Below are positions 43,208 through 62,138 of a DNA stretch of 64,000 nt, piece after piece (position 1 is the stretch's first letter; every line of letters begins with the position of its first letter). This DNA comes from a virus (Duplodnaviria > Caudoviricetes): the IMG/VR virus record IMGVR_UViG_2603880160_000004, positions 33,477 to 97,476 of that record; one strand, written 5' to 3'. A program made the translations under genes and the position numbers. The notes under the pieces are model-generated. The model did no database searches. It was not told the DNA's origin and saw only the letters and a list, made by a program, of their open reading frames with translations.

Positions 43208-43537
43208 TTATTGTGTCTCTCTTAATGTGTTTATCATTTGTCCCATCGTATTCCAATAATCTATATGTATTGTATGTGACGTAATCTCTCCACCCCTTAT
43301 GGTGTAGGTGACCACGATATTAGAAGCCTCTAATGGATATGCGTTGACGGTTCCCGCCACAATATTACCGTCACCATAAGTGTAATCCACCATCTTATAT
43401 GTTGCGGTTGTTGTTGTGATTTCATATCTAATTACATTATTGACATAATCATTGAAATATCTGAGTGCTTCAATGGACATTTGACCGTTAAAGTTTATTG
43501 TATCGTTCTTAGATAAAAATTTAAAATCTTTCATCAT
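43208..43537 (-). CDS. FKF-tag protein
   Basis: MMKDFKFL; similar to 44694..44990. Confidence 0.7.
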   Translation of the reverse strand: MMKDFKFLSKNDTINFNGQMSIEALRYFNDYVNNVIRYEITTTTATYKMVDYTYGDGNIVAGTVNAYPLEASNIVVTYTIRGGEITSHTIHIDYWNTMGQMINTLRETQ

Positions 43538-43923
43538 CGTCTTGGGTTTATAAAGTTATATGTATCAACTAATATCTCCTGATTTGTTGCTCCACCCATT
43601 TCCCACAGTTCAAATACTCCATATACCAAATCTGAATAAGCGCTATGAACAAATCTCCTTATCTCTTCGTGGGTTGTTATATGACCTCCATTAATAAATC
43701 CAACCGTTCTATTATATAAATCTGCCGATTCATTAAATAATGGATGATTTTCATTAAATATATTATAATGTGAAGCATAATGAGAATCCAATCTTCTATG
43801 GTATTCTTTTAGAAAACGAAGATTGCCAGTTAAACTGATTGTTTGATAATGATTTGGATTGATTTCTCTACCATACATATCCAACATAGATTTCACCCCC
43901 GATAAAAATTTAAATTGTTTCAT
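43534..43923 (-). CDS. FKF-tag protein
   Basis: MKQFKFL. Confidence 0.7.
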   Translation of the reverse strand: MKQFKFLSGVKSMLDMYGREINPNHYQTISLTGNLRFLKEYHRRLDSHYASHYNIFNENHPLFNESADLYNRTVGFINGGHITTHEEIRRFVHSAYSDLVYGVFELWEMGGATNQEILVDTYNFINPRR

Positions 43924-44143
43924 TTACAGTTTGCATTTGGTAATCAATCCAACCTCTATTCCACATATAGGCATATTGTGTATTTGCGTAACGATTATCA
44001 ATTATCTGATTTCCCACCATAGCACATAAATAACCAGCCTTATATACCTCTCTCATTAAAGGACATACTAAATCATCAGGATATGGAATAGTATTAGTTC
44101 CTGTTGATTTGTTATTACTTAAAAATTTAAATTGTTTTATCAT
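43910..44143 (-). CDS. FKF-tag RMF-like protein
   Basis: VYKAGYLCAMVG..NRY...MWNRGW. Confidence 0.65.
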   Translation of the reverse strand: MIKQFKFLSNNKSTGTNTIPYPDDLVCPLMREVYKAGYLCAMVGNQIIDNRYANTQYAYMWNRGWIDYQMQTVNETI

Positions 44144-44481
44144 ATTCCTGTTATATCTATTCTTCTTAAAAATTCTTCTTCATTCATCCTAAATGTGAAA
44201 TTTCTTGCTGTTGTGTTTATCTCTATCACACTATAATTAATCTCAACCGTAGGTGATAGTGAATTTAAATCCCAATTTCTCCAACCTGTAATTCTCAACC
44301 TACAATTATTAATTGGAACATTCACCATAGATAATTCAGTACCAAAATCACTAAGCATTTCTATATTATGATATTGTAACCACCTTATCACATTGATTAG
44401 AGCATCATCCATATTAAACATCAGATACATATTACCTGGTGGTTGTATTGGTATTGGTTTTTGAAAAAATTTAAAGTCCAT
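44140..44481 (-). CDS. FKF-tag protein
   Basis: MDFKFF. Confidence 0.7.
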   Translation of the reverse strand: MDFKFFQKPIPIQPPGNMYLMFNMDDALINVIRWLQYHNIEMLSDFGTELSMVNVPINNCRLRITGWRNWDLNSLSPTVEINYSVIEINTTARNFTFRMNEEEFLRRIDITGI

Positions 44482-44707
44482 TGTTTGCTCTTTGTTGTGC
44501 GTCTCTTAATATATCATATGAATGTTCTAATTCCCATCCCTCGTCAAATGCGTCAGATAATTCTAATCTTAAAAATGGATTATAATCTACGCTGCGTCCT
44601 TCTAAATAAGCTCGTCTTCCAATATCTATGGCACGAACAATTTCATCCTCCGTTGGGGTGATATAATCATCTTTCTTATTATTGTTTAGGAATTTAAATG
44701 TTTTCAA
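44471..44707 (-). CDS. FKF-tag RMF-like protein
   Basis: GRRAYLEG..NPF...AFDEGW. Confidence 0.65.
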   Translation of the reverse strand: MKTFKFLNNNKKDDYITPTEDEIVRAIDIGRRAYLEGRSVDYNPFLRLELSDAFDEGWELEHSYDILRDAQQRANNGL

Positions 44708-44990
44708 TAGTATGATTTGTTATGAATGCAAATGTATTTGCTACGGTTACCCAATATGTTATTATCATGTTAGTATCTCTATTAGGATATACTTTAACAA
44801 CAGCACGTGATAATTGTCCGAGTTCATATGTTGTTTCGGTAATAATATATTTGGCATCAAATGTTTCTGATATATATGTGTCTCTATATCTATTGTTAAT
44901 ATAATCATAAACCATTCCAATAACATGTCGTGACCATTCACCATTATATTCAATTGGTTTTGCTTTAGTTAAAAATTTAAATCTCTGCAT
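44694..44990 (-). CDS. FKF-tag protein
   Basis: MQRFKFL. Confidence 0.7.
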   Translation of the reverse strand: MQRFKFLTKAKPIEYNGEWSRHVIGMVYDYINNRYRDTYISETFDAKYIITETTYELGQLSRAVVKVYPNRDTNMIITYWVTVANTFAFITNHTIENI

Positions 44991-45282
44991 TTGGTGTAAA
45001 TGTTAATGTTACGTTAATATATTCCGCTTCTCGTCTTGGTAATTGGAATATTTGATTTCCCCTTATTTCAATTATGTCCGCCATATGGAATGATTCCTCG
45101 TGTTCGTGTATTAAATTTCCAGTGAGTGGAAGACGTGTATCATTATTCATAAAAATCATTGTTCTATACCTTCCTTGAACATCTTCATGAAATTTAATGG
45201 GACTAACACCGATGAATGTAAATCCTTCAACATCATATTGTCTTGGATTGAAAGGGGTTCTAAAAAATTTAAATGTTTTCAT
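44977..45282 (-). CDS. FKF-tag protein
   Basis: MKTFKFF. Confidence 0.7.
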   Translation of the reverse strand: MKTFKFFRTPFNPRQYDVEGFTFIGVSPIKFHEDVQGRYRTMIFMNNDTRLPLTGNLIHEHEESFHMADIIEIRGNQIFQLPRREAEYINVTLTFTPNAEI

Positions 45283-45598
45283 ATCTTTGCATTACTTCGT
45301 TAAACACATCCTCAGCAAGATGAAATGTGTGTTGGTTTATTCCGTTTCTGTCATATAATTCATATCTTATCCTCACATGTCTGGATTCAAAATAATCATG
45401 ACTTATTACATCATTAATCACCAAATGTCTAATAAAACCATTCTCCGCGAATTGATGTTGATATCCAACCGGTATTAAATGCATTCTATAACAATAACTT
45501 ATTAATCCTAATACCATATTCTCATATACATTTAGATGATAGAGTGGATCATCTTCAATGTTGATTTTGTTTTCTGTAAAAAATTTAAATGCTTTCAT
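45269..45598 (-). CDS. FKF-tag protein
   Basis: MKAFKFF. Confidence 0.7.
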   Translation of the reverse strand: MKAFKFFTENKINIEDDPLYHLNVYENMVLGLISYCYRMHLIPVGYQHQFAENGFIRHLVINDVISHDYFESRHVRIRYELYDRNGINQHTFHLAEDVFNEVMQRYENI

Positions 45599-46056
45599 TG
45601 TCTTAAAGTTAAACCAACTTCATCAACTAGTTGGTGAATATGGTCTATAGTTTCATTATATCCGCTTGATAATATATCGTGGATTCTATCCGTTAAAATA
45701 TAATCATCAAATGTTAGTCCATAACAATCATCAATCCGTGTTATTGATCTATATCTTGTGGTTTGATTGTTATTTCCGTTAAGATGTGTAAAATCTCTAT
45801 TGGTTATAATGAAAACACTACTTCTGTCAAATGTTTCATTTCTCCAATTATTGAAATCCCCCACGGATGATGCTATTACCGCACATTCTCTTGTACGCAG
45901 TGCGCCGTATAGTGAATTCCTAAGAATATGAAAGTCATTATCAGGTGGACCCAATGGTTGAACCGGCACAAGGTCTTGAGCGATGGTTCTTCCTGCACCT
46001 CTTCTTACTATCGGAAGAAAATAATCTTCTTTCTGGAAAAATTTAAATGGTTTCAT
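45595..46056 (-). CDS. FKF-tag protein with gp23/Gol-like segment
   Basis: MKPFKFF; LPIVRRGAGRTIAQDLVPVQPL. Confidence 0.7.
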   Translation of the reverse strand: MKPFKFFQKEDYFLPIVRRGAGRTIAQDLVPVQPLGPPDNDFHILRNSLYGALRTRECAVIASSVGDFNNWRNETFDRSSVFIITNRDFTHLNGNNNQTTRYRSITRIDDCYGLTFDDYILTDRIHDILSSGYNETIDHIHQLVDEVGLTLRQ

Positions 46057-46408
46057 TGTCTCTTATTACTCCTCTGAATATTAGTGGTCTATCCTTTGGC
46101 ATATCATCAAAATTATCTTGGTTGTAATGTATCATATTACTTATGTTTGTGTTGTCCACAAATTCATATACAAATATAATCTTATCTCTACTCATTTCCA
46201 TAAAATGATTGTATGAATTGATATATCTATTTGTAACTGTCACCGTCATCGTCTTTAATTCCTCGGTATAAAAATTTCCATCCCATCTATTTTCCATATA
46301 GAATATTACACCCACCGGTCTATACATCCATTGTAATTGACCGAGGTAATCACTCCTTAAATACCATTTTCTCTCTATATTCTTTTGGAAAAACTTAAAT
46401 GGTCTCAT
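46043..46408 (-). CDS. FKF-tag protein
   Basis: Start moved to MRPFKFF. Confidence 0.7.
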   Translation of the reverse strand: MRPFKFFQKNIERKWYLRSDYLGQLQWMYRPVGVIFYMENRWDGNFYTEELKTMTVTVTNRYINSYNHFMEMSRDKIIFVYEFVDNTNISNMIHYNQDNFDDMPKDRPLIFRGVIRDNETI

Positions 46409-46739
46409 ATAAAGATATATTTTCTTGAGTGGTAAAATCACAATAATATTCTGTATCAGGAAACTTTACACTATATTCTATCACTATTCTATTAGGTATG
46501 TTAAAATATGGTACAATATTATTTATCTTATAGAAATAAGTTACCCCTTCACCAATTTCGTTTTCTACTCTATACTCTACTGATGAAAATAATATCATAT
46601 TCTCCCTATGTAAACCCACCGCTACTTCCATTATATGTCCATACATATCTAATGGGATGCTGTAGGTTGTATTTGTATCCTTGGTGATTATTAGAATATA
46701 TTGTATTCTTGTCCCCAAAAAGAATTTAAATGGTTTCAT
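46395..46739 (-). CDS. FKF-tag protein
   Basis: MKPFKFF. Confidence 0.7.
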   Translation of the reverse strand: MKPFKFFLGTRIQYILIITKDTNTTYSIPLDMYGHIMEVAVGLHRENMILFSSVEYRVENEIGEGVTYFYKINNIVPYFNIPNRIVIEYSVKFPDTEYYCDFTTQENISLYETI

Positions 46740-47020
46740 ATGTAACCTCCATTTCTTACAAGTTCATCGTGACCAATTACATTTACCGCATTGTCGAATC
46801 TTTCTCGTAATAGTTCCAGTAATCTATCCCTATTCATATGATCATCCCACATTCTCATGTAACCCCTGTTGACACAATTCAATCGGGATCTGATTTGATA
46901 TGAAGAGTGATGTGTTTGAATGCGGAACATATATCCGTCTATTTCAATATCCACCCATCTTAATCCTATGTATGGATTTTCTTCTTCTATTTCTCTAAAA
47001 AATTTAAATGGTCTAATCAT
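46736..47020 (-). CDS. FKF-tag protein
   Basis: MIRPFKFF. Confidence 0.7.
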   Translation of the reverse strand: MIRPFKFFREIEEENPYIGLRWVDIEIDGYMFRIQTHHSSYQIRSRLNCVNRGYMRMWDDHMNRDRLLELLRERFDNAVNVIGHDELVRNGGYI

Positions 47021-47231
47021 TTCTTCTTTTTAATTCATTATCTAATATAATATACCACTCGGTTGCCGTTCTCCCATCTTTTTGATTAGGCAATGTACCA
47101 TTAGTTACCAAAAGTTTCATTATTCGTTTGATATAATCTGTGCTTATGGTTTCCAATGGATGCATCAATCCACCGTATGTTCTCCATTTAGGTGGGGGTG
47201 TCCCTTTAAAAAATTTAAAATCCATAGTCAT
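47013..47231 (-). CDS. FKF-tag protein, paralog of 55587..55823
   Basis: MTMDFKFF; WRT.GG..EW..IL.NEL.RR. Confidence 0.65.
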   Translation of the reverse strand: MTMDFKFFKGTPPPKWRTYGGLMHPLETISTDYIKRIMKLLVTNGTLPNQKDGRTATEWYIILDNELKRRND

Positions 47232-47613
47232 GTTCTTCCCATTTACATTTTTCATAAATAATATGATTAATCTCCGCTTCAACATCAATACTCATCCAAG
47301 CACCCGCTGCAAGTTCTTGTATATATCTTCTTATTGTTACACTATTCGTATGAACCGCAACCTCATCGATCTTCCTTCTAATATCATAATCACTATAAGA
47401 ATTATATTTGTCCCTATATAATTTGGTCATAACAATAATCAATATATTTTTAACCCTGTCATTATCCATTAGATTATTATCCTGAATATATTTGTATGTG
47501 ATGTCCAATACACCAATCAATAATGGAACATTTGTTGCATCGTCTAACAAACCGGTTAGTTGCCAATTTATTCTTGTTTCGTTTGATCTAAAAAATTTGA
47601 AGTCCTTTATCAT
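47215..47613 (-). CDS. FKF-tag protein, first gene of the operon
   Basis: Start moved to MIKDFKFF; TATATTTG promoter at 47621-47628. Confidence 0.7.
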   Translation of the reverse strand: MIKDFKFFRSNETRINWQLTGLLDDATNVPLLIGVLDITYKYIQDNNLMDNDRVKNILIIVMTKLYRDKYNSYSDYDIRRKIDEVAVHTNSVTIRRYIQELAAGAWMSIDVEAEINHIIYEKCKWEEHDYGF

Positions 47614-47699
47614 ATCATAACAAATATACAAAAAATATTTTGTAATATAAAAAATCCCCACCGAATTAACGATGAGGACTATTTCTTAATTTATTGCTG

Positions 47700-48020
47700 T
47701 TACATAAAGTTTCTGTAGTTCTCAATATCCTTTATACCTTTGAATAAACTTTCCGCTAAATTTGCATCAGATAATATTTTCTGAAAGTTCAAATCTATCT
47801 CCTCTTTATGTTTGAGTATTAGGTATCTACCTTCTGTCCAATTATCTTTATTGGTATGTGATATGTCTTTAAGAAGATAATCTAAAATATCCTCCAAAAA
47901 CATTGGAAATCCTGTTATGTATTGTGGATGGGAATATGATTCTCCCGCCGCGTCTTCATAACTACAATCTTCAACAAATTCTTTTATATCTTCAAGGTGG
48001 TTGTTTAATTCTGGTTTCAT
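47700..48020 (-). CDS. hypothetical protein
   Basis: Follows the helicase; terminator-like hairpin near 47650-47680. Confidence 0.6.
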   Translation of the reverse strand: MKPELNNHLEDIKEFVEDCSYEDAAGESYSHPQYITGFPMFLEDILDYLLKDISHTNKDNWTEGRYLILKHKEEIDLNFQKILSDANLAESLFKGIKDIENYRNFM

Positions 48021-48026
48021 ATTAAT

Positions 48027-50132
48027 TTATTTTATGAATAAATGGTTCTTTTTATTTTTAGTTATCCATACACTCAAACCTGTTAATCCTTTTATTTTTC
48101 TACAATCGGCGTGTGTGTTTATATTGTGTTTTTTTATAAACTTATTTGCAATTTCATCCGTCCAAAATATTTTCTCATCGGTAGTGAAATATTTTTTTCT
48201 ACCCCCACCAAAAAGATATATCCATCTATGTAAACTTAACCCCATTGAACCCATTTTACTTAAGTGGGTAAAATTAGATGGTTTATTTTTTTTAATAAAA
48301 TCTTTTGCAATTTTTTCTGTCCATTCTACGTCTTTAGATTCGGGAAAATAGGTAAATGTTAAATCATTATTTATTATCCAATTTATTAACCCCGAACCTT
48401 TTTCGTGATTTCTTAAATCACTTATTTTTTTTGCTTTACAATTTTTAATAAAATCTTTGGCGGTTTTGTCCGTCCAAGGTTTTATTTTAGATTCACCAAA
48501 AAACTTTTCTGTTAAATTATTTTCTCTTAACCAATAGGATAACCCAAAACCACTTTTAATATTTCTTAATTCAGATAATTCATTTATTTTATTCTTTTCA
48601 ATAAAATCTTTCGCAATGTCTTCATTCCAATTAGTATATGAGACATCTAAAAATTCGTTTCTTACATCACTTAATGTTGTCCAAGCAACAGTATTAAATA
48701 AACTATTACTTGAATGAAAAATGTCTTGTTTAAAAAAGTTCAAATCTAATGGAATACCTAATTGTTCAATGGAAATATATGGTCTAGTTCTTCTATTGTT
48801 AGTTGTAGAACTACCTGAGGATGTGTTGGATTTGTTGTTGGTTCTTCTACCATTTAAAACTTTCGGTATTCTAATTCCTCCCATATTTTTGCCATTATAT
48901 TTAGAATACCATTCTAAATTAGTTAAACATAACATAGCGGTCATCAAATCAACAAAGTAATCGGCGGTATTTTTAGTAGCAACTTTAAAATATATTTTTG
49001 TTTTGTTTGGATTTACATCAGATTTTCTTAATAATCTACCATACATCTGTAATAACATATCTAAACTTTGTGTCATTGTAAAATCAACAATGTTGAATAA
49101 CTCCGGCATATTAAAACCTAATCTACCCCTATCAACCGCAATTAAAATAATATATTCAGGATTTTTTTGAAACTTTTTAAACTCCTCACTATTTTTATCA
49201 TTCTCACTATGAGATAATAAAACCTTACCACTTAAATCTTTATTTGTGTTAAGTGTATTGTAAAAATTAGTTGCCTGTTTTCTACTGTGTGTATATATGA
49301 TTGTTTTATTTAAAGAATTAAATAATTTACCTACCCCATTACTTGTAATATTATTTATAGAGTGTAGTCCTTTAATTGGGTTTTTTAATTTTTTAACCAT
49401 TTCATTACAAACCGATAACAACGCATCTTCTGCTTGTTGTTTAGAATTAGTTTTACCCTCTTTCAAATGTCCAAATGTACCAAACCAATCGGTTCTTTTA
49501 AAATCGTAAGATGAAGAAACGACTTCCATTTTTACATTACTAACTAAACCAAGTTCAAATAATTCCATAACAGGAACAAATTTAAAAAGAAACCCACCTC
49601 TTTCAATAAAACGGGACGGAGTTCCAGTAAGTAATAATGTTTGTTTTGGTTTTGTGTGTTTTAAAATGTTTTGGATTGTCTTTTTGAAATACCATTGGTG
49701 TGCTTCATCCAATACGAACATTTCTAAATTGGGTAATAACTTATGGTTTTTAATTAAAGTTTGAGGTAAACAAATAATAACTTGTATCTTATCTTTTAAC
49801 GCACTTTCAATTTCCTTTTTATCTTTAACAACACGATAATCAAAAGATAATTTATGTTGTTCATTCATAATGTCTAAATCATCCTCAAAATTATCACGAA
49901 GGATAGTTTTGGATGCGGGAACAATTAAAGTGATTTTATTTTTATTAGATTTAACTTTATAAAATAATTCCAATTTTAATATGGTTGTTTTAGTTTTACC
50001 GGCAGATGTCCCCGCTGCCAAAACAACAACCTCTTTTGGAGATATATATATTGGATTAGTTAAATAATCAACTTGGTATGGGATTTTTTTTAATCCTCTT
50101 TTCTTCAATTCTTGGGTTATAATGTCATTCAT
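48027..50132 (-). CDS. superfamily 2 (DExH) helicase with four C-terminal repeats
   Basis: AAGTSAGKT, LDEAHQ, LTGTP, QMYGRLLR; start moved behind TATCTTTG at 50152-50159. Confidence 0.85.
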   Translation of the reverse strand: MNDIITQELKKRGLKKIPYQVDYLTNPIYISPKEVVVLAAGTSAGKTKTTILKLELFYKVKSNKNKITLIVPASKTILRDNFEDDLDIMNEQHKLSFDYRVVKDKKEIESALKDKIQVIICLPQTLIKNHKLLPNLEMFVLDEAHQWYFKKTIQNILKHTKPKQTLLLTGTPSRFIERGGFLFKFVPVMELFELGLVSNVKMEVVSSSYDFKRTDWFGTFGHLKEGKTNSKQQAEDALLSVCNEMVKKLKNPIKGLHSINNITSNGVGKLFNSLNKTIIYTHSRKQATNFYNTLNTNKDLSGKVLLSHSENDKNSEEFKKFQKNPEYIILIAVDRGRLGFNMPELFNIVDFTMTQSLDMLLQMYGRLLRKSDVNPNKTKIYFKVATKNTADYFVDLMTAMLCLTNLEWYSKYNGKNMGGIRIPKVLNGRRTNNKSNTSSGSSTTNNRRTRPYISIEQLGIPLDLNFFKQDIFHSSNSLFNTVAWTTLSDVRNEFLDVSYTNWNEDIAKDFIEKNKINELSELRNIKSGFGLSYWLRENNLTEKFFGESKIKPWTDKTAKDFIKNCKAKKISDLRNHEKGSGLINWIINNDLTFTYFPESKDVEWTEKIAKDFIKKNKPSNFTHLSKMGSMGLSLHRWIYLFGGGRKKYFTTDEKIFWTDEIANKFIKKHNINTHADCRKIKGLTGLSVWITKNKKNHLFIK

Positions 50133-50231
50133 TTTTTTTAATTTTAGAATACAAAGATAGTGATTATTTGGAATATCACAAAATATTTTAGAATATTTTT
50201 TACCATTGATAATCAATGAGTTATGAGTTAT

Positions 50232-50459
50232 TTATATTCCACTTGGTATTTTACCGAACTCTTTATAACTTAAATAATTGTAATATCCTGCCAACCACAC
50301 TTTCTTTATTCTTGGTGAGAAATAATCAGCACACGCGTAATTATATCCATTCTTTCCCGCCGTCCAACCATAACGATAGTATGATATTTCAATATCATTT
50401 TTCAAATATCCTTTTGGATATAATACTGGATTAAAGAATTTAAACTTATCTATCTTCAT
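50232..50459 (-). CDS. FKF-tag RMF-like protein
   Basis: YYRYGWTAGKNG...VWLAGY. Confidence 0.65.
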   Translation of the reverse strand: MKIDKFKFFNPVLYPKGYLKNDIEISYYRYGWTAGKNGYNYACADYFSPRIKKVWLAGYYNYLSYKEFGKIPSGI

Positions 50460-50889
50460 ATAATTTATAATCTATTCTAACAAATTCGTGATTAAATAAA
50501 AATCTTGGGTTTACAAATCTTGGTTCGGTATTGTAATTAATAATATAGTCAACCCCAACAAATATTCTTCTTATTCTTGGATAACAAGGTATCCAATCTT
50601 CACCTGTGTTATTTCCAAGTGACATTCTTCTATTTTCATAATGACTCTTGAAATCTTTTATTGGTCCTGACCAAGATACTATTCGGTATTGATTATTTAT
50701 GATATCTCTTGGTTCCCATATAAATGCAAAACTTTCATAATCAAAGTTTAGTGATAATGGATATTCACAAAAAGATAATTGTCTTTCACCTGGCCGAAAT
50801 TCCTCTCTTGGTATGTGTATATAAGGAACATAACCAGTCGGAACTGCCGATTCTTTTTTTGTGTTTAAAAATTTAAAATCTTTTATCAT
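50446..50889 (-). CDS. FKF-tag protein
   Basis: MIKDFKFL. Confidence 0.7.
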   Translation of the reverse strand: MIKDFKFLNTKKESAVPTGYVPYIHIPREEFRPGERQLSFCEYPLSLNFDYESFAFIWEPRDIINNQYRIVSWSGPIKDFKSHYENRRMSLGNNTGEDWIPCYPRIRRIFVGVDYIINYNTEPRFVNPRFLFNHEFVRIDYKLYEDR

Positions 50890-51116
50890 TACACATCATT
50901 ATTTCGTTCATACATCGTAACTCCCTCTCGCCACAATTCATACTTATATTCTTCCACAAGTGGATTGTATGGTGACTCTAACGAACGACTATTACGGTAA
51001 CAATCAAATGCATCATAATATCCTTTTGTGTATATGTTTCTATCCTCAGGACTTAAACCACTATATCTATTGGGTATAGGAACTTGTTTTTTTGAGAGGA
51101 ACTTAAATGTTTTCAT
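50889..51116 (-). CDS. FKF-tag RMF-like protein
   Basis: IYTKGYYDA..SPY..LWREG. Confidence 0.65.
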   Translation of the reverse strand: MKTFKFLSKKQVPIPNRYSGLSPEDRNIYTKGYYDAFDCYRNSRSLESPYNPLVEEYKYELWREGVTMYERNNDV

Positions 51117-51118
51117 TA

Positions 51119-51316: not shown

Positions 51317-51992
51317 AGGTTATTTGTTTTGGTTTATTTTTTTTTTTGAATAGATTTTTTATAAAATCAAATATTGTGTAAATTTTTTTACCACTAGCTT
51401 TATCTTGTCCACAACAAACTTCAAAAGGATTTCCTTTTTTGCAAATTGGGCATTTTGTATATATCATAGGTTATTTGTTTTAAATGTTTCAATATCAGGA
51501 TTAGGTTCTCCGCCGTTTAATTGATTTAGAATGTCCTCATCAATTACTCTTGTTATTTCTTCCCAAAGTAATTTACGAAGACGTTTGTTTATGTGATATT
51601 TTCTTTCTCTTGGTGTCATAATGTTTTTAATTTTTCAATTACATTATTATTAATGCCTGTGCAGAAATCTCTTTCAAGTATATTAATTAATGCTCGTTCA
51701 GCATCAACGCCAAATTCACCTGTTGCCATTTCAATACACTCGTCATCTGTTTTGTTATGCCAGAAGGATAAGTGTTTTAATAAATCGCTTGGGTTTGAAA
51801 TGATATTCATATTATTTTTTTATTTTAAAGAAATTAAGCATTCTATCTGTGAAAGGTAGTTTATTCTTCTTTAACATCTCTTGATATTCCACTACCTCAA
51901 TCGCCTCACTCATTAAGATTGGGGTTCCTCTTCTTACCTTATCAGACAATTCTTCAAGACGTTTATCTGTGAGTGTTTTTCTGAATTTCATA

Positions 51993-52399: not shown

Positions 52400-52972
52400 T
52401 TATATTACATCAGGAAAATTATACATATAGTGGTCTGGATAAATTGTTTGTCCTTCCACTGTGTTCCCTTCTTCAATACTTCTAAACAACATAACTTTAT
52501 ATGGCTGCGGCAAAATAGAATCGTATCTTTCTTCGGACACATCAAAGAACAAAAACTCTTCTGTGTGATAGTATTCCATATCCCTTTCGGTATATGTTCT
52601 TGTTCTTCTATTGAAAAATTCTCTATCTGCGTGATAGTGTTCCATATCCCTTTCAGTATATGTTTCTCCATTACGACGTTCAAACCACGCGTGCCATCCT
52701 CTATTCCATATTTCAGCTCTTATTATATCGTCGTGATATGGATTGTTGTAATTAGCCTGTGATGATGCTTCCCACCCTTCAATATATAGTTCCATATTTT
52801 CTCGTTCACCACCTCTCAAATCTTGTGGTAACATATTCCAATGACGATGTGATATTCCTTCTGGTGGTGCATGTGTTATCTGCAACGGAATATATGGTGC
52901 ATAAAACTCACCACCGGTAGCAACAACTCTTGGACCAACTACCCCACGAAAAAAATTAAATGGTTTTATCAT
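52400..52972 (-). CDS. FNF-tag protein with gp23-like YAPYIPLQ segment, RMF-like domain and internal duplication
   Basis: MIKPFNFFRG; FYAPYIPLQ; YIEGWEA..NPY..WNRGW. Confidence 0.7.
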   Translation of the reverse strand: MIKPFNFFRGVVGPRVVATGGEFYAPYIPLQITHAPPEGISHRHWNMLPQDLRGGERENMELYIEGWEASSQANYNNPYHDDIIRAEIWNRGWHAWFERRNGETYTERDMEHYHADREFFNRRTRTYTERDMEYYHTEEFLFFDVSEERYDSILPQPYKVMLFRSIEEGNTVEGQTIYPDHYMYNFPDVI

Positions 52973-53307
52973 ATGTATCTTATTGTTGATGTTCCATCTA
53001 AATGTTCATTTAAAAAATCTTCCATAAATCCAATTACCTGTTCATTACATATATAATTTCTATATCTATATTTTAATTCATCTATCATTGCTCTAACAGA
53101 TAATTCGTCCATGTCACCATCATAAATTAATTCTAATTGTGTATTTTGAACTCCTACATAAAAACCAAGATGTTGTGTGGGACCAGAAAAAAAATGTGTT
53201 GGTGGTTCGTTTGAAGTTATTACCTCAACAGGTACACCTCCAACCAATAGGTCGTAGTGATATAATCTTTTTGGTCTCCCCTCAAAAAATTTAAATTGGT
53301 TTATCAT
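52969..53307 (-). CDS. FKF-tag protein
   Basis: MINQFKFFEGRP. Confidence 0.7.
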   Translation of the reverse strand: MINQFKFFEGRPKRLYHYDLLVGGVPVEVITSNEPPTHFFSGPTQHLGFYVGVQNTQLELIYDGDMDELSVRAMIDELKYRYRNYICNEQVIGFMEDFLNEHLDGTSTIRYI

Positions 53308-53308
53308 A

Positions 53309-53719
53309 TTATCCTCTTCTTTGTAAATTAACTAATGGGACACTTACTCTATGATGTTCCGTGTTATCGTTTATAGTGGTTAAATAAAGGATATGAAACA
53401 TTCCACCAATGTTTATACCACTTACAATCTTTAATTTTGTGTATCCATCCGTTTCTGCTAACCAACATTCATAACCTCTCCAATTTATACGTTGTCTCAT
53501 ACTAGTTCTTACACGATTGATAACAACACTATCATAGAAAGACCCATTTACTTCTATATAATTTGCCGGATTGTAGTTTGGGTCCGATACTATTTGTTGA
53601 ACCCTATCTGATAACTCGGCAAGTCTGAACCCACCATACAGGCTATTATTAATTATTCTATCACTATACTGATACAACCTTGATGGCCTACCCTGAAAAA
53701 ATTTAAATGGTTTTATCAT
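53309..53719 (-). CDS. FKF-tag protein
   Basis: MIKPFKFFQGRP. Confidence 0.7.
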   Translation of the reverse strand: MIKPFKFFQGRPSRLYQYSDRIINNSLYGGFRLAELSDRVQQIVSDPNYNPANYIEVNGSFYDSVVINRVRTSMRQRINWRGYECWLAETDGYTKLKIVSGINIGGMFHILYLTTINDNTEHHRVSVPLVNLQRRG

Positions 53720-54177
53720 CCTCTAAAAAATTTAAAATCTAATTTGTTCTGTTGTTTCATATATCGTTCCCGATGGGATTGTTCATAACGACCTCTTTGA
53801 TTTCTAATATTATATGTCTCAACCAACTCATCTTTTAACTTTTGAAACTTTCTCCAATGATACCATTTAACAAACGACATAAACAAATGACTTTTGTGTA
53901 TGTATAAATTATCTGTTAGTTTTATATCACCATCAAGAAAGAATATGATATTAACATCGGTGCGAGTAAATGTTATGGTAGTAATATCATAACTGTATAG
54001 ATAAAAATAATTTGATTCGGTATGTTCTGCTGGTTCATACTTATACACACCGCGTTCCAACTCATCATATTTCTTTTTATATAATTTCACGTTTGGGTAT
54101 GAAACCACATTAAAGATAAGAATTACGAAAAATATCACAGCAAATATTACTGATATTACTATTTGAGCGTCGGTCAT
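53716..54177 (-). CDS. membrane protein with C-terminal FKFFRG tag
   Basis: N-terminal TM helix; ends KLDFKFFRG; promoter at 54182-54189. Confidence 0.7.
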   Translation of the reverse strand: MTDAQIVISVIFAVIFFVILIFNVVSYPNVKLYKKKYDELERGVYKYEPAEHTESNYFYLYSYDITTITFTRTDVNIIFFLDGDIKLTDNLYIHKSHLFMSFVKWYHWRKFQKLKDELVETYNIRNQRGRYEQSHRERYMKQQNKLDFKFFRG

Positions 54178-54217
54178 GTAACAAATATAAGATATTAGTT
54201 TGAATATACAAAAAATA

Positions 54218-54667
54218 CTAATGGTTATCTACAAAATCATTCCACCCCACATACCACATATTAAACTGGTGGGACCCGTATGTATGTGGGTTTTCATTTA
54301 ATGGAAGACCTAACTGTGCAGTTGCCCATCCCTCCTGATAAGACTCCTCATCGGTTGGTTGTATTTGTCTTGATGGGTGGTGAAGAAAACATTCAAGATA
54401 TCCACTTTCCCATATTCTATGTAATGAATAAATTAGTTCTTCCCTATTACCATACGGATTATCATATACCTCCATACCTCTTTCACAAGCTCTCCATCCT
54501 CTTCCGAATATTCTTTTTTCTCTTGGTGTTTCACAATTTTCAGGATATGGAATTTGACCCATAGGTATCCTTGGATACCTTGGTTGTGCTAATGTTAATC
54601 TTTCTTCTATGTCAACTATTCTTGCACTGATTATTCCCCTTAAAAAATTAAACTTGGGAAGTTTCAT
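54218..54667 (-). CDS. FNF-tag protein with two RMF-like domains
   Basis: Start moved to MKLPKFNFLRG; GWRACERG..NPY..WESGY and GWATAQLG..NPH..WYVGW. Confidence 0.7.
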   Translation of the reverse strand: MKLPKFNFLRGIISARIVDIEERLTLAQPRYPRIPMGQIPYPENCETPREKRIFGRGWRACERGMEVYDNPYGNREELIYSLHRIWESGYLECFLHHPSRQIQPTDEESYQEGWATAQLGLPLNENPHTYGSHQFNMWYVGWNDFVDNH

Positions 54668-54668
54668 G

Positions 54669-54869: not shown

Positions 54870-54872
54870 ATT

Positions 54873-55531: not shown

Positions 55532-55586
55532 ATAACAAAGATAAGGATATTATTTGGAATATACAAAATTAATCTTATCTTTGTTT

Positions 55587-55823
55587 ATGGAGTTTAAATT
55601 CTTAAGGGGGGAAATATTTGATAGGAACGTCTGTTGGAGGTCTCAAAATGGTCGAGATACCCCTATTTTTTATATGACCACTAGTCACATTGAGAATACT
55701 ATTTTATGTTTACGTGGTGTGGGTCTAACCGAAATACCCGACCCGTATAATGGGAAAACAAAAGACGAATGGATTCGTATATTGACTAATGAATTAAGAC
55801 AAAGGTTAAATGAAAATAATTAA
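55587..55823 (+). CDS. FKF-tag protein on the opposite strand
   Basis: Start moved to MEFKFLRG, behind TATCTTTG at 55576. Confidence 0.7.
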   Translation: MEFKFLRGEIFDRNVCWRSQNGRDTPIFYMTTSHIENTILCLRGVGLTEIPDPYNGKTKDEWIRILTNELRQRLNENN

Positions 55824-55845
55824 AACATAATCAAAAGAATTAACT

Positions 55846-57405: not shown

Positions 57406-58057
57406 ATTGATGATTAACTATTTTACAAGGGCTACCATAGGCAACCACATTATTTGGAATGTCTTTAGTAACTAAGGAACCAGCACCTATTACCGTATTA
57501 TCACCTATCGTAATTCCGTCAATTATATTCGCACCAATACCTATTTGACAACCTTTACCTATACTTACATTACCGGCAATATTAACACCTGGATTTATTG
57601 ACGTGAAGTCTCCAATAGTTGTATGATGACCAATTGAAACGTGTCTATTAATTGTAACAAAATTACCTATTGTCGTATGTGCGGCAATTGATACTTTAGA
57701 ATTAATTAACAATCCATAACCAAGTGTACTTGTATATGAAATATCTTCTCCTTTATGAATAACGTTAATAAATTTATTTTTGTCAGGATTTAACGATTCT
57801 ATAATTTTAATTTTATTTTTGGGTTGGTAAACACCTAACGTATATAAATTAAAGTCATTTACATTAACCTCATTCAAAACTTCTATATTGAATTTATTAT
57901 GTTCAAATGAATTTAAAATTGGTAAATCTAAATTATTATATATAACAATATCTTTACCAAAGTCTAATAATCTATCTATAGAGTATGAATATAGATTATC
58001 TAATATCATCGTAATCACATTGTCTCCCTTACCTAATACCAATATTCTTGTTTCCAT
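57386..58057 (-). CDS. PglD/NeuD-like hexapeptide acetyltransferase
   Basis: IGHHTTIG, IGAGSLVTKD, VAYGSPC. Confidence 0.85.
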   Translation of the reverse strand: METRILVLGKGDNVITMILDNLYSYSIDRLLDFGKDIVIYNNLDLPILNSFEHNKFNIEVLNEVNVNDFNLYTLGVYQPKNKIKIIESLNPDKNKFINVIHKGEDISYTSTLGYGLLINSKVSIAAHTTIGNFVTINRHVSIGHHTTIGDFTSINPGVNIAGNVSIGKGCQIGIGANIIDGITIGDNTVIGAGSLVTKDIPNNVVAYGSPCKIVNHQYETQSI

Positions 58058-58886
58058 ATCCTAATTTTCTTAATTCTGTTGATGTGTAGTGAACCATATC
58101 TAATTCATTCATAATTCTATGAGATCGTTTTAATAATTCTACGTTAGTTGTTTTTTCTTTATCTTTAAAATATAAGTTATCTTCTAACCCAATTCTGATT
58201 CCGTCAAAATCTAACAAACCATATGTTGTACACTTTAATTGTTGTGAACCTATTCCACCTAAACACACATATGAATTATTTGGTAGTTTACTTTTGATTA
58301 ATGCTAATGTACTAAAATCACATTGACCGTTATAAATGTTTCCCAATATAACATTGATGTGATATGGAGGTTGTAGTTTATTTTTTGATATTAAATAATT
58401 TGTGTAGTTTAACATACCGTCATCAAAACATTCAATCTCAGGACTAACACCATACTTATCCATTTCACTTATCAATGACAAAATCATCTCAGGTTCATTA
58501 ACTGATGCACCAGTTGGGAAGTTTAATGATGACATTGTTAAAGATCCCATATCAGGATATAGTTGCAACACTTCAGATCTCTTTTCCAATTCAGGAAAAT
58601 TTCTTCCTGTTAAAGAAACACAAATTAATAATTCAGGACAATGTTTTTTTATCCCTTCTACTATTTTTTGGTAGGTTTCTTTTCTATACGTGTTCTTTAA
58701 TGTCTCTTCATCTCTTGCGTGTAGATGAACTATCGATATACCTAATTCATATGCGTTATGAACCTCATCAATTATTTCATTTGGTAATAATGGAGCATAC
58801 GAATTTTCTCTGGTAGTTTGTGTACCTGTTGGTGTAAAATTAATAATTTTCTTATTACAAATATTTCTCACATGTATAATATACAT
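58029..58886 (-). CDS. beta-keto acid cleavage enzyme (BKACE/Kce, DUF849)
   Basis: FTPTG, IVHLHARD, PEIECFD, IRIGLEDN. Confidence 0.85.
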   Translation of the reverse strand: MYIIHVRNICNKKIINFTPTGTQTTRENSYAPLLPNEIIDEVHNAYELGISIVHLHARDEETLKNTYRKETYQKIVEGIKKHCPELLICVSLTGRNFPELEKRSEVLQLYPDMGSLTMSSLNFPTGASVNEPEMILSLISEMDKYGVSPEIECFDDGMLNYTNYLISKNKLQPPYHINVILGNIYNGQCDFSTLALIKSKLPNNSYVCLGGIGSQQLKCTTYGLLDFDGIRIGLEDNLYFKDKEKTTNVELLKRSHRIMNELDMVHYTSTELRKLGYGNKNIGIR

Positions 58887-58909
58887 TATATTTATTAATA
58901 ATCCAAATA

Positions 58910-59230
58910 TTAATCCTCAATTTTTTTAACTCTAATAACTCTACTGATTGGTTGTGGTTCTTTAACACACTTCTTCTTTCTTGGTAATCTTTTCTTCTTA
59001 GGTTTAATGTTATGTTCTTTTTTATGACAATGTGAACATAATGATTCCAATGTGTTATTATCATACTCCCACGGCATAAGACCATCTTCGTATTTGGTAT
59101 GGTGTACCTGTAATCTGTGTGATTTCTTTCCACATCTGACGCAGGTGTGGTTGTCACGTTTCCTTATAAATGATGCTTTAATCTTCCACTTCGGGTCTTG
59201 TAATAAACGTCTATATTCTTTCCTATTCAT
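58910..59230 (-). CDS. HNH endonuclease
   Basis: RDNHTCVRCG, LQVHH, LCSHCHKKEH. Confidence 0.85.
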   Translation of the reverse strand: MNRKEYRRLLQDPKWKIKASFIRKRDNHTCVRCGKKSHRLQVHHTKYEDGLMPWEYDNNTLESLCSHCHKKEHNIKPKKKRLPRKKKCVKEPQPISRVIRVKKIED

Positions 59231-59258
59231 TAGGTATAAATACCCTATAGTATTGATT

Positions 59259-59975
59259 TTAATCCCAATATCCGTGGGACTTCTTAAAGAACTCAGGATT
59301 GTTTCGGTTAAAATAAGATTTAATCAATATCTTAATCATATAAAAAACCCCCTTATTCTTAAATCTTCTCGCCGATGTCCATACCCCACCAGTTTTATGT
59401 ATCTTAAAGTTTTGACTATCAATCTTTTGTGATAAAGAATAATCTTCGGCAAACTTTTCATTTGGGTTATATCCACCGATGTTCCAATATGTTTCAGTTT
59501 TAAATAATTGAAATCCACCCACCGCAAATGGTGTTCCAAGAAATACTGACAATCTTTGGGTGATATCAAACATCCTAAAAATCCAATTAAACCCTGTTTC
59601 CGTCTCAAATGGGACGGTCACCAGGTCTTTCTCATATTCTACCACCGTTTCCAACAAACCTTGTTTAAACAACATTATATCAGCATCCAAGAATAACATA
59701 TAAGGTGTGGTAACTAACTTTGATCCGTTTAACCTTGCTTGAGCGGGAAACCCACCCTCAATTACATCTATTTTTAATGAATATTTGTAGTTTGATTCCG
59801 TTTGGTATATCCATCTTAATGATTCCTCATCGTCTGAATTATCTGAAATGATTACTCGTGTACCCGCAATTCCTCTTTGTTTAGATATGAACCCCAAACA
59901 CTCGTAAATGTTTACCCCCTCATTTTTACATGGAATTACTATGGTTAACCTATCCTTTAATAACTGTGTATTCAT
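59259..59975 (-). CDS. GT2 glycosyltransferase
   Basis: IVIPCKNE, FLDAD, GGY..AED, TSARRF; start moved to MNTQ. Confidence 0.85.
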   Translation of the reverse strand: MNTQLLKDRLTIVIPCKNEGVNIYECLGFISKQRGIAGTRVIISDNSDDEESLRWIYQTESNYKYSLKIDVIEGGFPAQARLNGSKLVTTPYMLFLDADIMLFKQGLLETVVEYEKDLVTVPFETETGFNWIFRMFDITQRLSVFLGTPFAVGGFQLFKTETYWNIGGYNPNEKFAEDYSLSQKIDSQNFKIHKTGGVWTSARRFKNKGVFYMIKILIKSYFNRNNPEFFKKSHGYWD

Positions 59976-60636
59976 TTTCGTTGTAGATGATGTAAGAATT
60001 ATTTTCAATCCAATCCCCACAATTTAAATATCTAACATCTCCTATAAGTTTATCTTCAGGATGGTGGATATGACCGCACATTACAGTTGAACAATTATGT
60101 TTAATACCTTGACGGACAATCTCTTCCTCAAAAGATGTAATGAATTTAACGGCCTCTTTTACTTTATCTTTTAAGAACTTGGATAGTGACCTTTTATATC
60201 CTAACTTCTTTAATCTCCTATCTATGGAAATGGCGAAGTCATAACCTATACTACCCAATATACCCAACCATTTAAGTTTAACAACGCCATCATATAAATC
60301 CCCGTGAGTTATATAAGTGTTATTCCATATGTATTCATTATGGATTTCAATGTTTCCAAAATTCAAATCCAAATATTCTCTGGCAAATTCGTCATGGTTT
60401 CCTGGCAAGTATATGACCTTTGTCCCATTCTTGGAATAGGACATTATCTTTCTAATTACGTTTGTGTGTGATTGTGGCCAGCGGAACTTTCTTTTTAACA
60501 ACCATCCGTCTACTATATCACCAACCAAGAATAGATATTCAGGTTGATATTGTTTGAGGACGTTTAATACTTGTTCGGCATTTGAACCTTTGGAACCTAA
60601 ATGTACGTCGGAAATGAATAACGCTTCTATTTTCAT
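59950..60636 (-). CDS. LpxH-like UDP-2,3-diacylglucosamine hydrolase (metallophosphoesterase)
   Basis: ISDVHLG, GDIVD, GNHD, HGD, GHIH, NCGDW. Confidence 0.85.
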   Translation of the reverse strand: MKIEALFISDVHLGSKGSNAEQVLNVLKQYQPEYLFLVGDIVDGWLLKRKFRWPQSHTNVIRKIMSYSKNGTKVIYLPGNHDEFAREYLDLNFGNIEIHNEYIWNNTYITHGDLYDGVVKLKWLGILGSIGYDFAISIDRRLKKLGYKRSLSKFLKDKVKEAVKFITSFEEEIVRQGIKHNCSTVMCGHIHHPEDKLIGDVRYLNCGDWIENNSYIIYNENEYTVIKG

Positions 60637-60891
60637 CTACATAAATAGAATAAGTTGCCTTGGGTATATGTTAAGAAATTATTAACCTATAAGATATTGA
60701 TTTACAATCTCATCACCCTTTAGTTCTGTCTTAATTAGGAACCTATCAACATCTGACATATGTTTCATTTTACGTTCAGCTTGTTCAAGTGATTCACACT
60801 CAATTACCTCATTACCAACCTCTATGTGGTATTTAATTGTTATTTTTACTTTCATAAAGCAAATATACAACAATATTCGTATATACCAAAT

Positions 60892-61014
60892 TTAATTACC
60901 TCTACCCGTCTTTTTAATCTGTGTGTTGTTCTTGATAGGTTTGGTTGGAATAGGTTTCTTATCTCCTTTGGCCGCCTTAGGTTGTTGTGAATTGTTGAAA
61001 AATTTTGATGACAT
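60892..61014 (-). CDS. 40-aa basic protein (not in the ORF track)
   Basis: MSSKFFNN...IKKTGRGN; TATTTATA upstream. Confidence 0.55.
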   Translation of the reverse strand: MSSKFFNNSQQPKAAKGDKKPIPTKPIKNNTQIKKTGRGN

Positions 61015-61033
61015 AGTCGTTTATTTATAAATA

Positions 61034-61354
61034 TTATGGTCTGTATCTTAAATATGTAATATGAATTGGGTCTGTTTGAATATTAAATCCCCACCCATTT
61101 CCTTCGTTTTCACTATTATGAACCACACCATTTGGACCAACAATAGAGCTCACAGGAATTACCATTTGTGATGGAAACATTCTTAAAAATTCAATAATAC
61201 CGTTAGTGTCCACCGAAATAATATCGTACATCTCATCTGATGGGTCCATTGAACTTTCCCACATCCAAGAGGCAATTTCCACATTCTCTAAATTGATATA
61301 ACCTTCTGGCATATCATCGTCATTGTCCGTTAAAAATTTGAAGTCCTTTATCAT
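61034..61354 (-). CDS. FKF-tag protein
   Basis: Start moved to MIKDFKFL; ATGA overlap. Confidence 0.7.
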   Translation of the reverse strand: MIKDFKFLTDNDDDMPEGYINLENVEIASWMWESSMDPSDEMYDIISVDTNGIIEFLRMFPSQMVIPVSSIVGPNGVVHNSENEGNGWGFNIQTDPIHITYLRYRP

Positions 61355-61746
61355 GCTCCGAATAATTTCATTACACCTATGAATGTAACAACTGACACTA
61401 ACAGTGTCATCACCACAACACCGATAGGTTCCAACTTCCAAGTTTCAATTAAAACCAATTTAACTCTTGTTCCAAATATCTTAACCTTAGTCCATAGTGT
61501 TGGGTTCACCGTTATGGTTGTTGTTGCTTGAAACAATCTAATTTGTTCGTCCACGTCTCTATCAAGACGTTCAACTCTTTGAAAATGTTCGGCATAATAT
61601 CTTTCCATTTCATTATTGGATAAGGGATTTGCATTAACTTCTACCCTTATTCCATTCGGATTGTGGATTGATGCAGTGGCATATGTTTGTCCGTCCATTA
61701 TATCTAATGTGCCGATATAACCCCTGAAAAACTTGAATTTAGTCAT
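61351..61746 (-). CDS. FKF-tag protein with C-terminal TM helix
   Basis: MTKFKFFRG. Confidence 0.7.
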   Translation of the reverse strand: MTKFKFFRGYIGTLDIMDGQTYATASIHNPNGIRVEVNANPLSNNEMERYYAEHFQRVERLDRDVDEQIRLFQATTTITVNPTLWTKVKIFGTRVKLVLIETWKLEPIGVVVMTLLVSVVTFIGVMKLFGA

Positions 61747-62138
61747 TACATAAATTTTGAGGTAAATGCTCCACTTCTAAATGTTGCAGTACCAGTTGTT
61801 AAAGTTCCTCCTATTCCTCCTGTTGTAACTGTTCCTGTTGTTGTATATGTTGTTCCGTTTGGATTTGATGTTGTTAAACTATACCCTGTTGCCGTATTAA
61901 TTGTACCGTTGTATGGAATTGTAAATGTACCAGTGCCGGGTGTTGTTGTTATAGTATAGTTTGGTGGTGTGTATTGAATGAGACCTGGATTAACAACCCA
62001 AGTAGGTGTATACGTTATTCCACCCCAATTTGGAGTAAGAATAGTATTCAAATTATTCAATCTGTTTATTGCATCCCAATCAATATCCAATAATGGATGT
62101 TCTTCTTGATATCCGTGGAAAAATACAAATCTTTTCAT
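61746..62138 (-). CDS. FxF-tag Thr/Gly-rich protein
   Basis: MKRFVFFHG. Confidence 0.65.
   Translation of the reverse strand: MKRFVFFHGYQEEHPLLDIDWDAINRLNNLNTILTPNWGGITYTPTWVVNPGLIQYTPPNYTITTTPGTGTFTIPYNGTINTATGYSLTTSNPNGTTYTTTGTVTTGGIGGTLTTGTATFRSGAFTSKFM

Follow-up and report, generated by a model that had tools for sequence, protein, structure and literature searches.

A short terminal peptide shared by unrelated small proteins of a T4-like jumbo phage as a putative docking or localisation tag

Why would 25 small proteins of one phage, mostly unrelated in their bodies, begin with the same few residues? The question is raised by a stretch of viral DNA of 64,000 nucleotides (nt), hereafter the window, which covers bases 33,477-97,476 of the 97,476-bp IMG/VR record IMGVR_UViG_2603880160_000004 and to whose positions all coordinates refer unless another record or locus is named. 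A first-pass annotation made from the letters alone had noticed that small proteins encoded in the last third of the window share the peptide F-K-F-(F/L) at their start, hereafter the tag. It had proposed a shared docking or localisation signal that recruits a diverse effector library to one hub, compartment, or protease, and a motif search across the genome and its relatives as one way to follow this up.

Scanning the whole record for a start codon one to five codons before F-[KNV]-F-[FLW], followed by at least 40 codons, returned 25 N-terminally tagged open reading frames (ORFs), all of them within 43,208-62,138, while 50 shuffles gave 0.22 on average and 2 at most. A fuller context that is often seen is [K/R/D/E]-x-F-K-F-[F/L]-x-G; the x-G, which had been described as frequent, is present in 10 of the 25. 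The layout reported earlier was recovered in full, with 14 consecutive genes at 43208-47613, three at 50232-51116, four at 52400-54667, a single + strand gene at 55587, and three at 61034-62138 (numbered g1 to g25 in this order). A 26th carrier is a membrane protein (53716-54177) with the motif at its extreme C-terminus, two residues before the stop codon. The tagged genes are packed into arrays with tight overlaps: of the 13 junctions in the 14-gene run, six have an overlap of 14 nt, two of 11 nt, four of 4 nt, and one of 8 nt, and at eight of them the TTTAAA that codes for F-K of the next tag contains the TAA with which the upstream gene ends. The 25 window proteins are 70-190 amino acids long and mostly acidic, with a median isoelectric point (pI) of 6.4 and a median body pI of 5.3, and one member of the g23-g25 group (61034-62138) has the variant FVFF.

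That the bodies are mostly unrelated, as had been claimed, is borne out by similarity searches. The 25 genes fall into 22 families by BLAST. When profiles without the tag were compared with each other, just two of the 231 family pairs gave a further link above 70% probability, which leaves about 20; with relatives included, there are 37 families. By these comparisons, the tag is a modular element sitting on unrelated bodies.

From what phage do these genes come? Since head genes are absent from the 97-kb record (the head module was met only in two related records) and its 84 larger ORFs match mostly sugar-modifying and other accessory families, the window is an accessory-gene region of an uncultured freshwater T4-like jumbo phage of which the record is a fragment. 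Cultured phages gave no match to positions 43-51 kb by megablast and only a chance-level match to g9 by tblastn. Viral contigs scanned with the exact tag-coding consensus yielded 118 loci, with at least two tagged ORFs in 14 of them. The best locus (L066) runs collinear with the array of the window, the longer array blocks being 88-96% identical in nucleotides, and sits in a close relative of 335,630 bp with a CheckV completeness estimate of 100% (G001); a second related record (G002) has 323,865 bp. In both, genes for a major capsid protein of the Gp23 type (E 1.8e-63) and for a Peptidase_S77 prohead protease of the gp21 type (E 5e-21 and 7e-25) flank an acidic 420-residue ORF, the scaffold protein, and the capsid protein aligns with solved T4 gp23 structures (E 4e-25).

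The phage clade is abundant. Its capsid protein has more than 8,000 related clusters at E <= 1e-5 in a metagenome protein collection, and the window stretch itself is present in many lake-water metagenomes, with no RNA dataset listed among those that contain it. A Bacteroidota host is suggested by motifs of the TAnnTTTG type, which we take to be the -7 element of Bacteroidota, and by the presence of Flavobacterium phages among the cultured phages with the nearest capsid proteins. The proposed motif search found relatives tagged too: G001, G005, and G006 have tag arrays, and G002-G004 contain smaller numbers of tags. The pattern has no match in immuto, a cultured Flavobacterium phage, and its matches in five other T4-like phages are just scattered background. 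Judged from these records, the arrays appear to be restricted to one phage clade.

Is the tag kept as a peptide or as a stretch of DNA? We compared the codons of 97 tagged genes from the window and its relatives, collected by the motif, with a background of long ORFs (79% TTT and 79% AAA). The first Phe is encoded by TTT 86 times and by TTC 11 times (Fisher p = 0.018 against background) and the second by TTT 69 times and by TTC 28 times (p = 0.096). The Lys position uses AAA 74 times and AAG 17 times (p = 0.69), plus three Asn, two Arg, and one Val codons, and position 4 uses TTT, TTC, TTA, CTA, CTC, CTT, and TTG, i.e., Phe and Leu codons throughout. The slight TTT excess at the first Phe may be due to the TAA stop embedded in TTTAAA. 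The synonymous variation that had been pointed out earlier therefore holds across the 97 genes, in which third positions largely follow background usage while F-K-F is fixed.

Homologues found through their bodies tell the same story. A body-only search of relatives showed the strict tag in 41 of 43 homologous ORFs and FKLL in one, the displayed upstream stretch of the 43rd being too short to reach the tag. A search of a 5.8-billion-protein collection found 175 homologues of g9, and among the 120 listed the tag is present in 115; three of the others are truncated gene calls and two have FKLL/FKVL. F, K, and F are invariant in all 24 sequences of the g23 family, down to 39% identity, and the tag is kept in orthologues whose bodies are just 26-50% identical. 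Background usage at third positions together with retention in body-found homologues argues for selection on the tag at the protein level, as the first-pass annotation had it; the conservation is not confined to nucleotides, with synonymous sites varying and residues fixed.

Where in the protein does the tag sit? In a census of 486 non-overlapping ORFs from the phage's own genome and the relatives' loci, the motif lies within the first 12 residues 76 times and seven more times behind an ATG called too far upstream (83 N-terminal cases), in the last 13 residues nine times, and truly internally once in ca. 70,700 interior residues. The nine C-terminal cases belong to seven families unrelated by BLAST, and a hydrophobic N-terminal helix is recognizable by eye in five of the nine proteins. 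Four of the nine genes are not followed by a tagged gene, so these motifs cannot be remnants of a neighbouring start. In the membrane protein of the window, a 153-residue protein on the - strand with a hydrophobic N-terminal helix and the C-terminus ..LDFKFFRG, the motif is kept both in the G001 orthologue, with one synonymous change (TTT to TTC), and in a 39%-identical orthologue (L111); a search of the ESM Atlas with this protein returned just its own viral cluster.

Two AlphaFold models place the tag outside the predicted folded body, to which it is joined by a variable polar linker. The AlphaFold2 model of the g23 family has a mean predicted local distance difference test score (pLDDT) of 80.9 and a predicted template modelling score of 0.74, with residues 1-12 below 50, including a helix at residues 6-12. 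The g9 model (mean pLDDT 55) has residues 1-53 below 50 and an alpha/beta domain at residues 56-146. Foldseek searches with both models against the PDB, and with the g23 model against BFVD, found nothing at E <= 0.001. A Sec or lipoprotein signal peptide was considered and rejected, given that no hydrophobic core follows the basic N-terminal region: a hydrophobic stretch of at least 15 residues is absent in 23 of the 25 proteins and lies near the C-terminus, not after the tag, in g24 and g25.

A peptide that is terminal, used at either end, strict in F-K-F, outside the fold, and carried by soluble and membrane proteins alike has the signature of a docking or localisation peptide, and its C-terminal use and near-absence from protein interiors fit such a role better than one tied to the start codon. 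On balance, we lean towards the tag being a short terminal peptide for docking or localisation, which would bring every tagged protein, whether soluble or anchored in the membrane, to a single partner or site in the cytoplasm that all of them share. Of the earlier proposal, the shared signal is thus backed by protein-level selection, modularity, the modelled position outside the fold, and the use of both termini, while the hub, compartment, or protease is putative. A specific phage or host protein hub is a tentative candidate for what reads the tag, and the inner face of the cell membrane, bound via a weak basic-aromatic peptide, a somewhat fainter one; an AAA+ protease that takes the tag as a degron is unlikely, and the assembling capsid slightly more so.

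Several points weigh against a docking or localisation peptide. No tag partner was found. Orthologues are not independent of each other, and the between-family statistics of the tag were collected via the motif and therefore carry an ascertainment bias. Recombination within the tag is in itself capable of spreading a shared 5' module and of making its copies uniform. Low pLDDT is no proof of disorder, and both alignments behind the models are shallow (34 and 24 sequences). With regard to the membrane, the helical hydrophobic moment of the tag is just moderately raised (mean 0.47 vs. 0.33 for body windows, with 23% of tags above the body 90th percentile), and with regard to a degron, ClpP, which G001 and G002 encode, is also encoded in three (W02-W04) of five other T4-like records searched, and these three have no tag array. 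A clamp as the hub was rejected as a candidate: the C-terminus of the G001 DNA polymerase (965 residues) has no F-K-F-like motif.

The membrane has known models in the peptides of MinD, FtsA, and E. coli MreB, which are described as very short, basic-hydrophobic, N- or C-terminal, transplantable, and weakly binding alone (PMC3163269). Like them, the tag is terminal, basic-aromatic, and next to a flexible linker. Unlike them, it is shorter (4-7 fixed residues) and near-invariant in F-K-F, and its hydrophobic moment is raised only as far as stated above; its sequence seems stricter than lipid binding needs.

What if there is no common partner at all, and the tag is a 5' (or 3') module kept by descent and by recombination or gene conversion, under local constraint only? 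The array itself lends this some weight. Compared with G001, all five indels of the window array break in tag-coding DNA, and the flanking alignments overlap by 11-39 nt. Three of these indels are present in the window, i.e., a block of g16, g15, a helicase gene, and a 106-residue gene; g12 (46736-47020; MIRPFKFF.., 94 residues); and g8 (45269-45598; MKAFKFF.., 109 residues), the latter two missing in G001 with tags bounding the indel. The other two are found in G001 only (one gene and one 1.6-kb stretch). The g9 family has mosaic linkers behind the tag. Judging by these alignments, the tagged array behaves as a cassette array with gain and loss via recombination within tag-coding DNA. Because gains and losses break inside tag DNA, recombination also helps to spread the tag, and because it can homogenise a 5' module, sharing alone is no proof of a shared partner. 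The stop codons placed in the next tag's TTTAAA at 8/13 junctions, which may explain the TTT excess, point the same way. However, gene conversion would homogenise synonymous sites too, whereas these are at background here and the residues are fixed; the tag is kept in the most diverged orthologues mentioned above; and C-terminal copies exist in seven unrelated families, with four of the nine not before a tagged gene. As the residues are fixed over saturated synonymous sites, recombination alone is insufficient, and we regard an explanation without any common partner as rather doubtful.

A similar exchange of genes is known from the promoter-early stem-loop (PeSL) cassettes in hyperplastic regions of T4-type phages, where a short repeat flanks non-essential small genes and recombination between its copies leads to insertions, deletions, and replacements that distinguish close relatives (PMC2839356). 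The indel boundaries at a repeated element (5/5) are shared with that system. The difference is that the element described here is coding, comprising the first 7-8 codons of overlapping genes, and conserved as amino acids, while PeSL is an intergenic promoter-terminator.

Two neighbours of the arrays are worth describing in this context. A DEAD/ResIII-type helicase (48027-50216, - strand; PHROG 16, E 8e-27) is encoded within the tagged arrays and is missing at this place in G001. Its closest relatives (50-61% identity) are found in smaller, unrelated phage contigs, and the nine loci retrieved with it belong to different smaller phages without the tag motif; the helicase looks like a mobile insertion. 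An untagged 59-residue protein (51812-51991, - strand) is 70-79% identical in two distant loci (L109 and L133) and adjoins tagged genes there too as a conserved neighbour.

What do the bodies of the tagged proteins resemble? PHROGs gave four weak families among the 25. The Pfam family RMF (ribosome modulation factor) was matched below its cut-off of 27.9 bits by g21 (54218-54667; MKLPKFNFL.., 149 residues; 23.9 bits, E 4.5e-5), g5 (44471-44707; TTG start, MKTFKFL.., 78 residues; 17.7 bits, E 0.0039), and g18 (13.6 bits), and g21 apparently holds two copies of a G-W/Y...N-P...W..G-W pattern. Pfam Gp23 was matched by 8 of 72 tagged proteins from relatives (best E 1.6e-13). We built hidden Markov models of capsid segments from eight diverse T4-type capsid proteins and searched them against the tagged proteins, with 588 reversed or shuffled controls that reached E 0.068 at best. 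The N-arm segment was found in g9 (45595-46056; MKPFKFF.., 153 residues; E 1.6e-6), whose residues 14-38 resemble it, and partly in g10 (46043-46408; MRPFKFF.., 121 residues; E 6.9e-4), whose residues 26-42 resemble the capsid strand after the N-arm. Residues 20-34 of g18 (52400-52972; MIKPFNFF.., 190 residues) match the conserved C-terminal capsid segment (E 3.1e-5). The spine-helix segment was found in a six-member family in G001, G002, and four loci of other contigs (E 5.7e-23 to 1.3e-6); g14 (47215-47613; MIKDFKFF.., 132 residues), which heads the 14-gene run, has a weak similarity to it (E 0.066). Profile comparison with the capsid protein left most tagged families at control level.

In our alignment, the N-arm segment corresponds to residues 26-61 of mature T4 gp23, which we take to be the Gol region. 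Gol is described as binding EF-Tu and as the best conserved stretch in the first quarter of gp23 (PMC3014915), and host systems that sense capsid protein are described there and elsewhere (PMC3014915; bioRxiv 10.64898/2026.01.04.697583). The capsid-fragment tagged proteins might act as decoys or assembly modulators. Further capsid-fragment mini-proteins are encoded at 6929-7168 of locus L131 and at 1632-1919 of locus L092, the 95-residue protein of the latter locus joining two capsid segments. That the tag itself is a copy of a capsid beta-strand was rejected, the strand aligning to residues 10-16 of the L092 mini-protein, next to the tag at residues 4-9. The "effector library" of the first-pass annotation is an assumption, the only body similarities suggested by sequence being capsid fragments and the sub-cut-off RMF matches.

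When might the tagged genes be expressed? Promoters of the host type TAnnTTTG had been assigned to them, in contrast to a second class with the motif TATTTATA. Both motif classes do exist, as putative promoters. Four genes at the head of operons (47613, 54177, 55531, and 55587) have TAT[AC]TTTG 3-7 nt upstream of their ATG. The motif takes the form TATATTTG 7 nt before g14 (47621-47628, - strand) and 4 nt before the membrane-protein gene (54182-54189, - strand), the head of the run down to g18, and the form TATCTTTG 3 nt before g22 (55576-55583, + strand). We take TATATTTG to be a -7 motif of the Bacteroidota type. The motif TATTTATA is absent inside the tagged arrays; elsewhere in the record, 15 genes have it 5-11 nt in front of their ATG, and in G001 it precedes the prohead protease and scaffold genes. 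We infer that TAT[AC]TTTG marks early and TATTTATA late operons. In relatives, a glycosyltransferase operon contains a conserved pair of tagged proteins, among them the spine-helix mini-protein, with TATTTATA 3-4.5 kb upstream of the pair in four of six loci and, in three of these four, TATATTTG nearer or equally near. Given this upstream TATTTATA, the tag is probably not tied to one temporal class.

Other genes behind TATTTATA have features of their own. In the window, they start at 42974, 40836, 21580, 21054, 19976, 19417, 16146, 15423, 9750, and 59230 (- strand) and at 36882 (+ strand). Several of the proteins begin with M-K-(I/L/F)-(L/M/I)-D-(I/L/V)-(I/L)-x-E, i.e., with a hydrophobic-x-Glu near residue 9-10, an N-terminus that presumably resembles a T4-type propeptide with a prohead-protease site. 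One TATTTATA lies directly upstream of a 493-residue protein (41493-42974, - strand) that has four internal repeats with "..GK.IFKA.K.G.." and no PHROGs match. Small M-G-C-G-C-K-K proteins (L131 10312-10479; L092 near 5866) head the glycosyltransferase operon of the tagged pair, and the L092 copy ends in an FKFL motif, which the G001 copy does not.

Could the tag be a T4-like capsid-targeting sequence (CTS) that loads proteins into the prohead for injection or head assembly, with the capsid-fragment proteins being head-associated? In T4, the sole part common to the unrelated internal proteins is an N-terminal targeting peptide of 10-19 residues, in which positions 4 and 7 are the most important for targeting; Alt has a propeptide at its C-terminus as well (PMC9026906, PMC3012670). 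Just as with the CTS of IPI, IPII, IPIII, and Alt, a short terminal peptide is the sole shared part of unrelated small proteins here, the set of which varies between relatives (PMC3012670, PMC9026906), and the clade has T4-type head genes, i.e., the Gp23-type capsid protein, gp21-type protease, and acidic scaffold of G001 and G002. Moreover, the commonest start M-K-x-F-K-F-F/L puts aromatic or hydrophobic residues at positions 4, 6, and 7, and capsid segments occur in 8/72 tagged proteins of relatives as well as in g9, g10, and g18. However, no protease cleavage motif follows the tag: instead of a consistent hydrophobic-x-Glu site, [LIVMF]-x-E is scattered over the first 35 residues of 8 of the 25 proteins. 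The tagged proteins are acidic (median body pI 5.3), whereas the internal proteins of T4 are described as basic (PMC9026906). The arrays have TAT[AC]TTTG and lack the TATTTATA of the G001 protease and scaffold genes, and it is different genes, those behind TATTTATA with N-termini ending in hydrophobic-x-Glu, that fit a T4-type propeptide better. Finally, there are ca. 26 tagged proteins here compared to 3-4 in T4, and the motif is also carried by membrane-anchored proteins, at their C-terminus. The T4 CTS is the nearest precedent, but the defining features that were tested (cleavage site and basic charge) are absent, and capsid targeting is an unlikely explanation.

We consider it just as unlikely that the tag is a degron, i.e., a basic-aromatic end recognised by an AAA+ protease of the host (ClpXP, ClpAP, or Lon), perhaps together with the ClpP of the phage, which would make the tagged proteins short-lived and clear them together. 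The terminal peptide of low confidence on unrelated proteins (pLDDT below 50 in both models) would fit, and both G001 and G002 have a gene for a ClpP homologue (E 4e-58), at a distance from the head genes. ClpX reads N- and C-terminal degron classes, including the phage lambda O tag, and a short unstructured terminal peptide suffices to address unrelated proteins to one machine (PMC12723719). However, the N- and C-terminal degrons of ClpX are described as separate classes (PMC12723719), whereas the tag is a single motif that serves at either terminus. ClpP was also rejected as the specific partner given that, as mentioned, it is not specific to tagged phages, and a ClpS homologue was not found in any of four clade records. 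The ClpP homologue of G001 lies at 212.5-215.2 kb (L146 5531-6208, 7428-8237) together with a 269-residue ORF that by eye resembles a sigma-70-family sigma factor, and both adjoin a 707-residue ORF that by eye resembles an SbcC/gp46-type ATPase.

A nucleotide or translation element, i.e., an AU-rich (re-)initiation signal for overlapping genes without Shine-Dalgarno sequence or a nascent-peptide ramp, could draw on the 4-14 nt overlaps, the stops supplied by TTTAAA at eight junctions, and the very AU-rich consensus, but it is largely refuted and very improbable since codons ending in G or C (TTC, AAG, CTC) occur at background frequency, the tag Phe is never an Ile, Tyr, Asn, or Leu codon in the motif-collected 97-gene set while the second Phe becomes Leu or Val in three body-found sequences, operon-first genes and the lone + strand gene are tagged too, and the motif also occurs at C-termini.

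The remaining tagged genes, on the - strand like those above unless stated otherwise, complete the inventory. The 14-gene run starts with g1 (43208-43537; MMKDFKFL.., 109 residues) and continues with g2 (43534-43923; MKQFKFL.., 129 residues), g3 (43910-44143; MIKQFKFL.., 77 residues; related to g5 and g21), and g4 (44140-44481; MDFKFF.., 113 residues). Beyond g5 follow g6 (44694-44990; MQRFKFL.., 98 residues), a paralogue of g1 (35% over 95 residues), and g7 (44977-45282; MKTFKFF.., 101 residues), and between g10 and g14 lie g11 (46395-46739; MKPFKFF.., 114 residues), g12, and g13 (47013-47225; MDFKFF.., 70 residues; alternative start at 47231). The second group consists of g15 (50232-50459; MKIDKFKFF.., 75 residues), g16 (50446-50889; MIKDFKFL.., 147 residues), whose tag marks one border of the insertion that holds the helicase gene and is missing in G001, and g17 (50889-51116; MKTFKFL.. 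with the codons TTT AAG TTC CTC, 75 residues). Next to g18 are g19 (52969-53307; MINQFKFF.., 112 residues) and g20 (53309-53719; MIKPFKFF.., 136 residues). The sole + strand tagged gene, g22 (55587-55823; MEFKFL.., 78 residues), is a paralogue of g13. The last group comprises g23 (61034-61354; MIKDFKFL.., 106 residues), a member of a widespread family, g24 (61351-61746; MTKFKFF.., 131 residues), with a 19-residue hydrophobic stretch near the C-terminus by eye, and g25 (61746-62138; 130 residues), with the variant tag MKRFVFF...

Beyond the tagged genes, the record (L001, L002, and window 55.8-64 kb) encodes sugar enzymes such as epimerases, several glycosyltransferase families, a DegT aminotransferase, a hexapeptide transferase, and FkbM methyltransferases, as well as cyclophilin, lipase, chitinase-like, and LCCL-domain proteins. 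One of its glycosyltransferases is ca. 50% identical to those of Xanthomonas and Stenotrophomonas jumbo phages. A 558-residue HNH/homing-endonuclease-like protein is encoded at 16904-18580 (- strand; PHROG 559, E 6e-40), and most of the large ORFs had no match in PHROGs.

How much of this is new? Full-text searches with the motif letters and phage terms, supplementary files being outside their scope, returned only synthetic (KFF)3K-type peptides and amyloid reviews, and no description was found in the literature on jumbo phages, Flavobacterium, and N-terminal motifs or on capsid-protein decoys. One tag on many cargos is known already from T4. New features are the motif itself, the fact that it is used at either terminus, the number of proteins that carry it, the recombination junction in coding sequence, and the capsid-fragment cargos. 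It is tentatively conceivable that these amount to a new phage addressing code in which a peptide at either terminus would recruit an exchangeable library of at least 25 proteins, including membrane members and mini-proteins with the best conserved peptides of the phage's capsid protein, which could serve as decoys for host capsid sensors, to one hub, with cargo added by recombination in tag DNA.

For the biology of these phages, a reader of the tag would give a handle on about two dozen proteins, i.e., on where and when they act and on their interactions. The cassette behaviour is a way for the phage to swap accessory genes with the addressing kept intact, and the tag itself may serve as a natural address label of 4-7 residues for cargo delivery in Bacteroidota-type hosts. 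The capsid-fragment mini-proteins suggest that phages may express pieces of their own capsid, perhaps against host capsid sensors.

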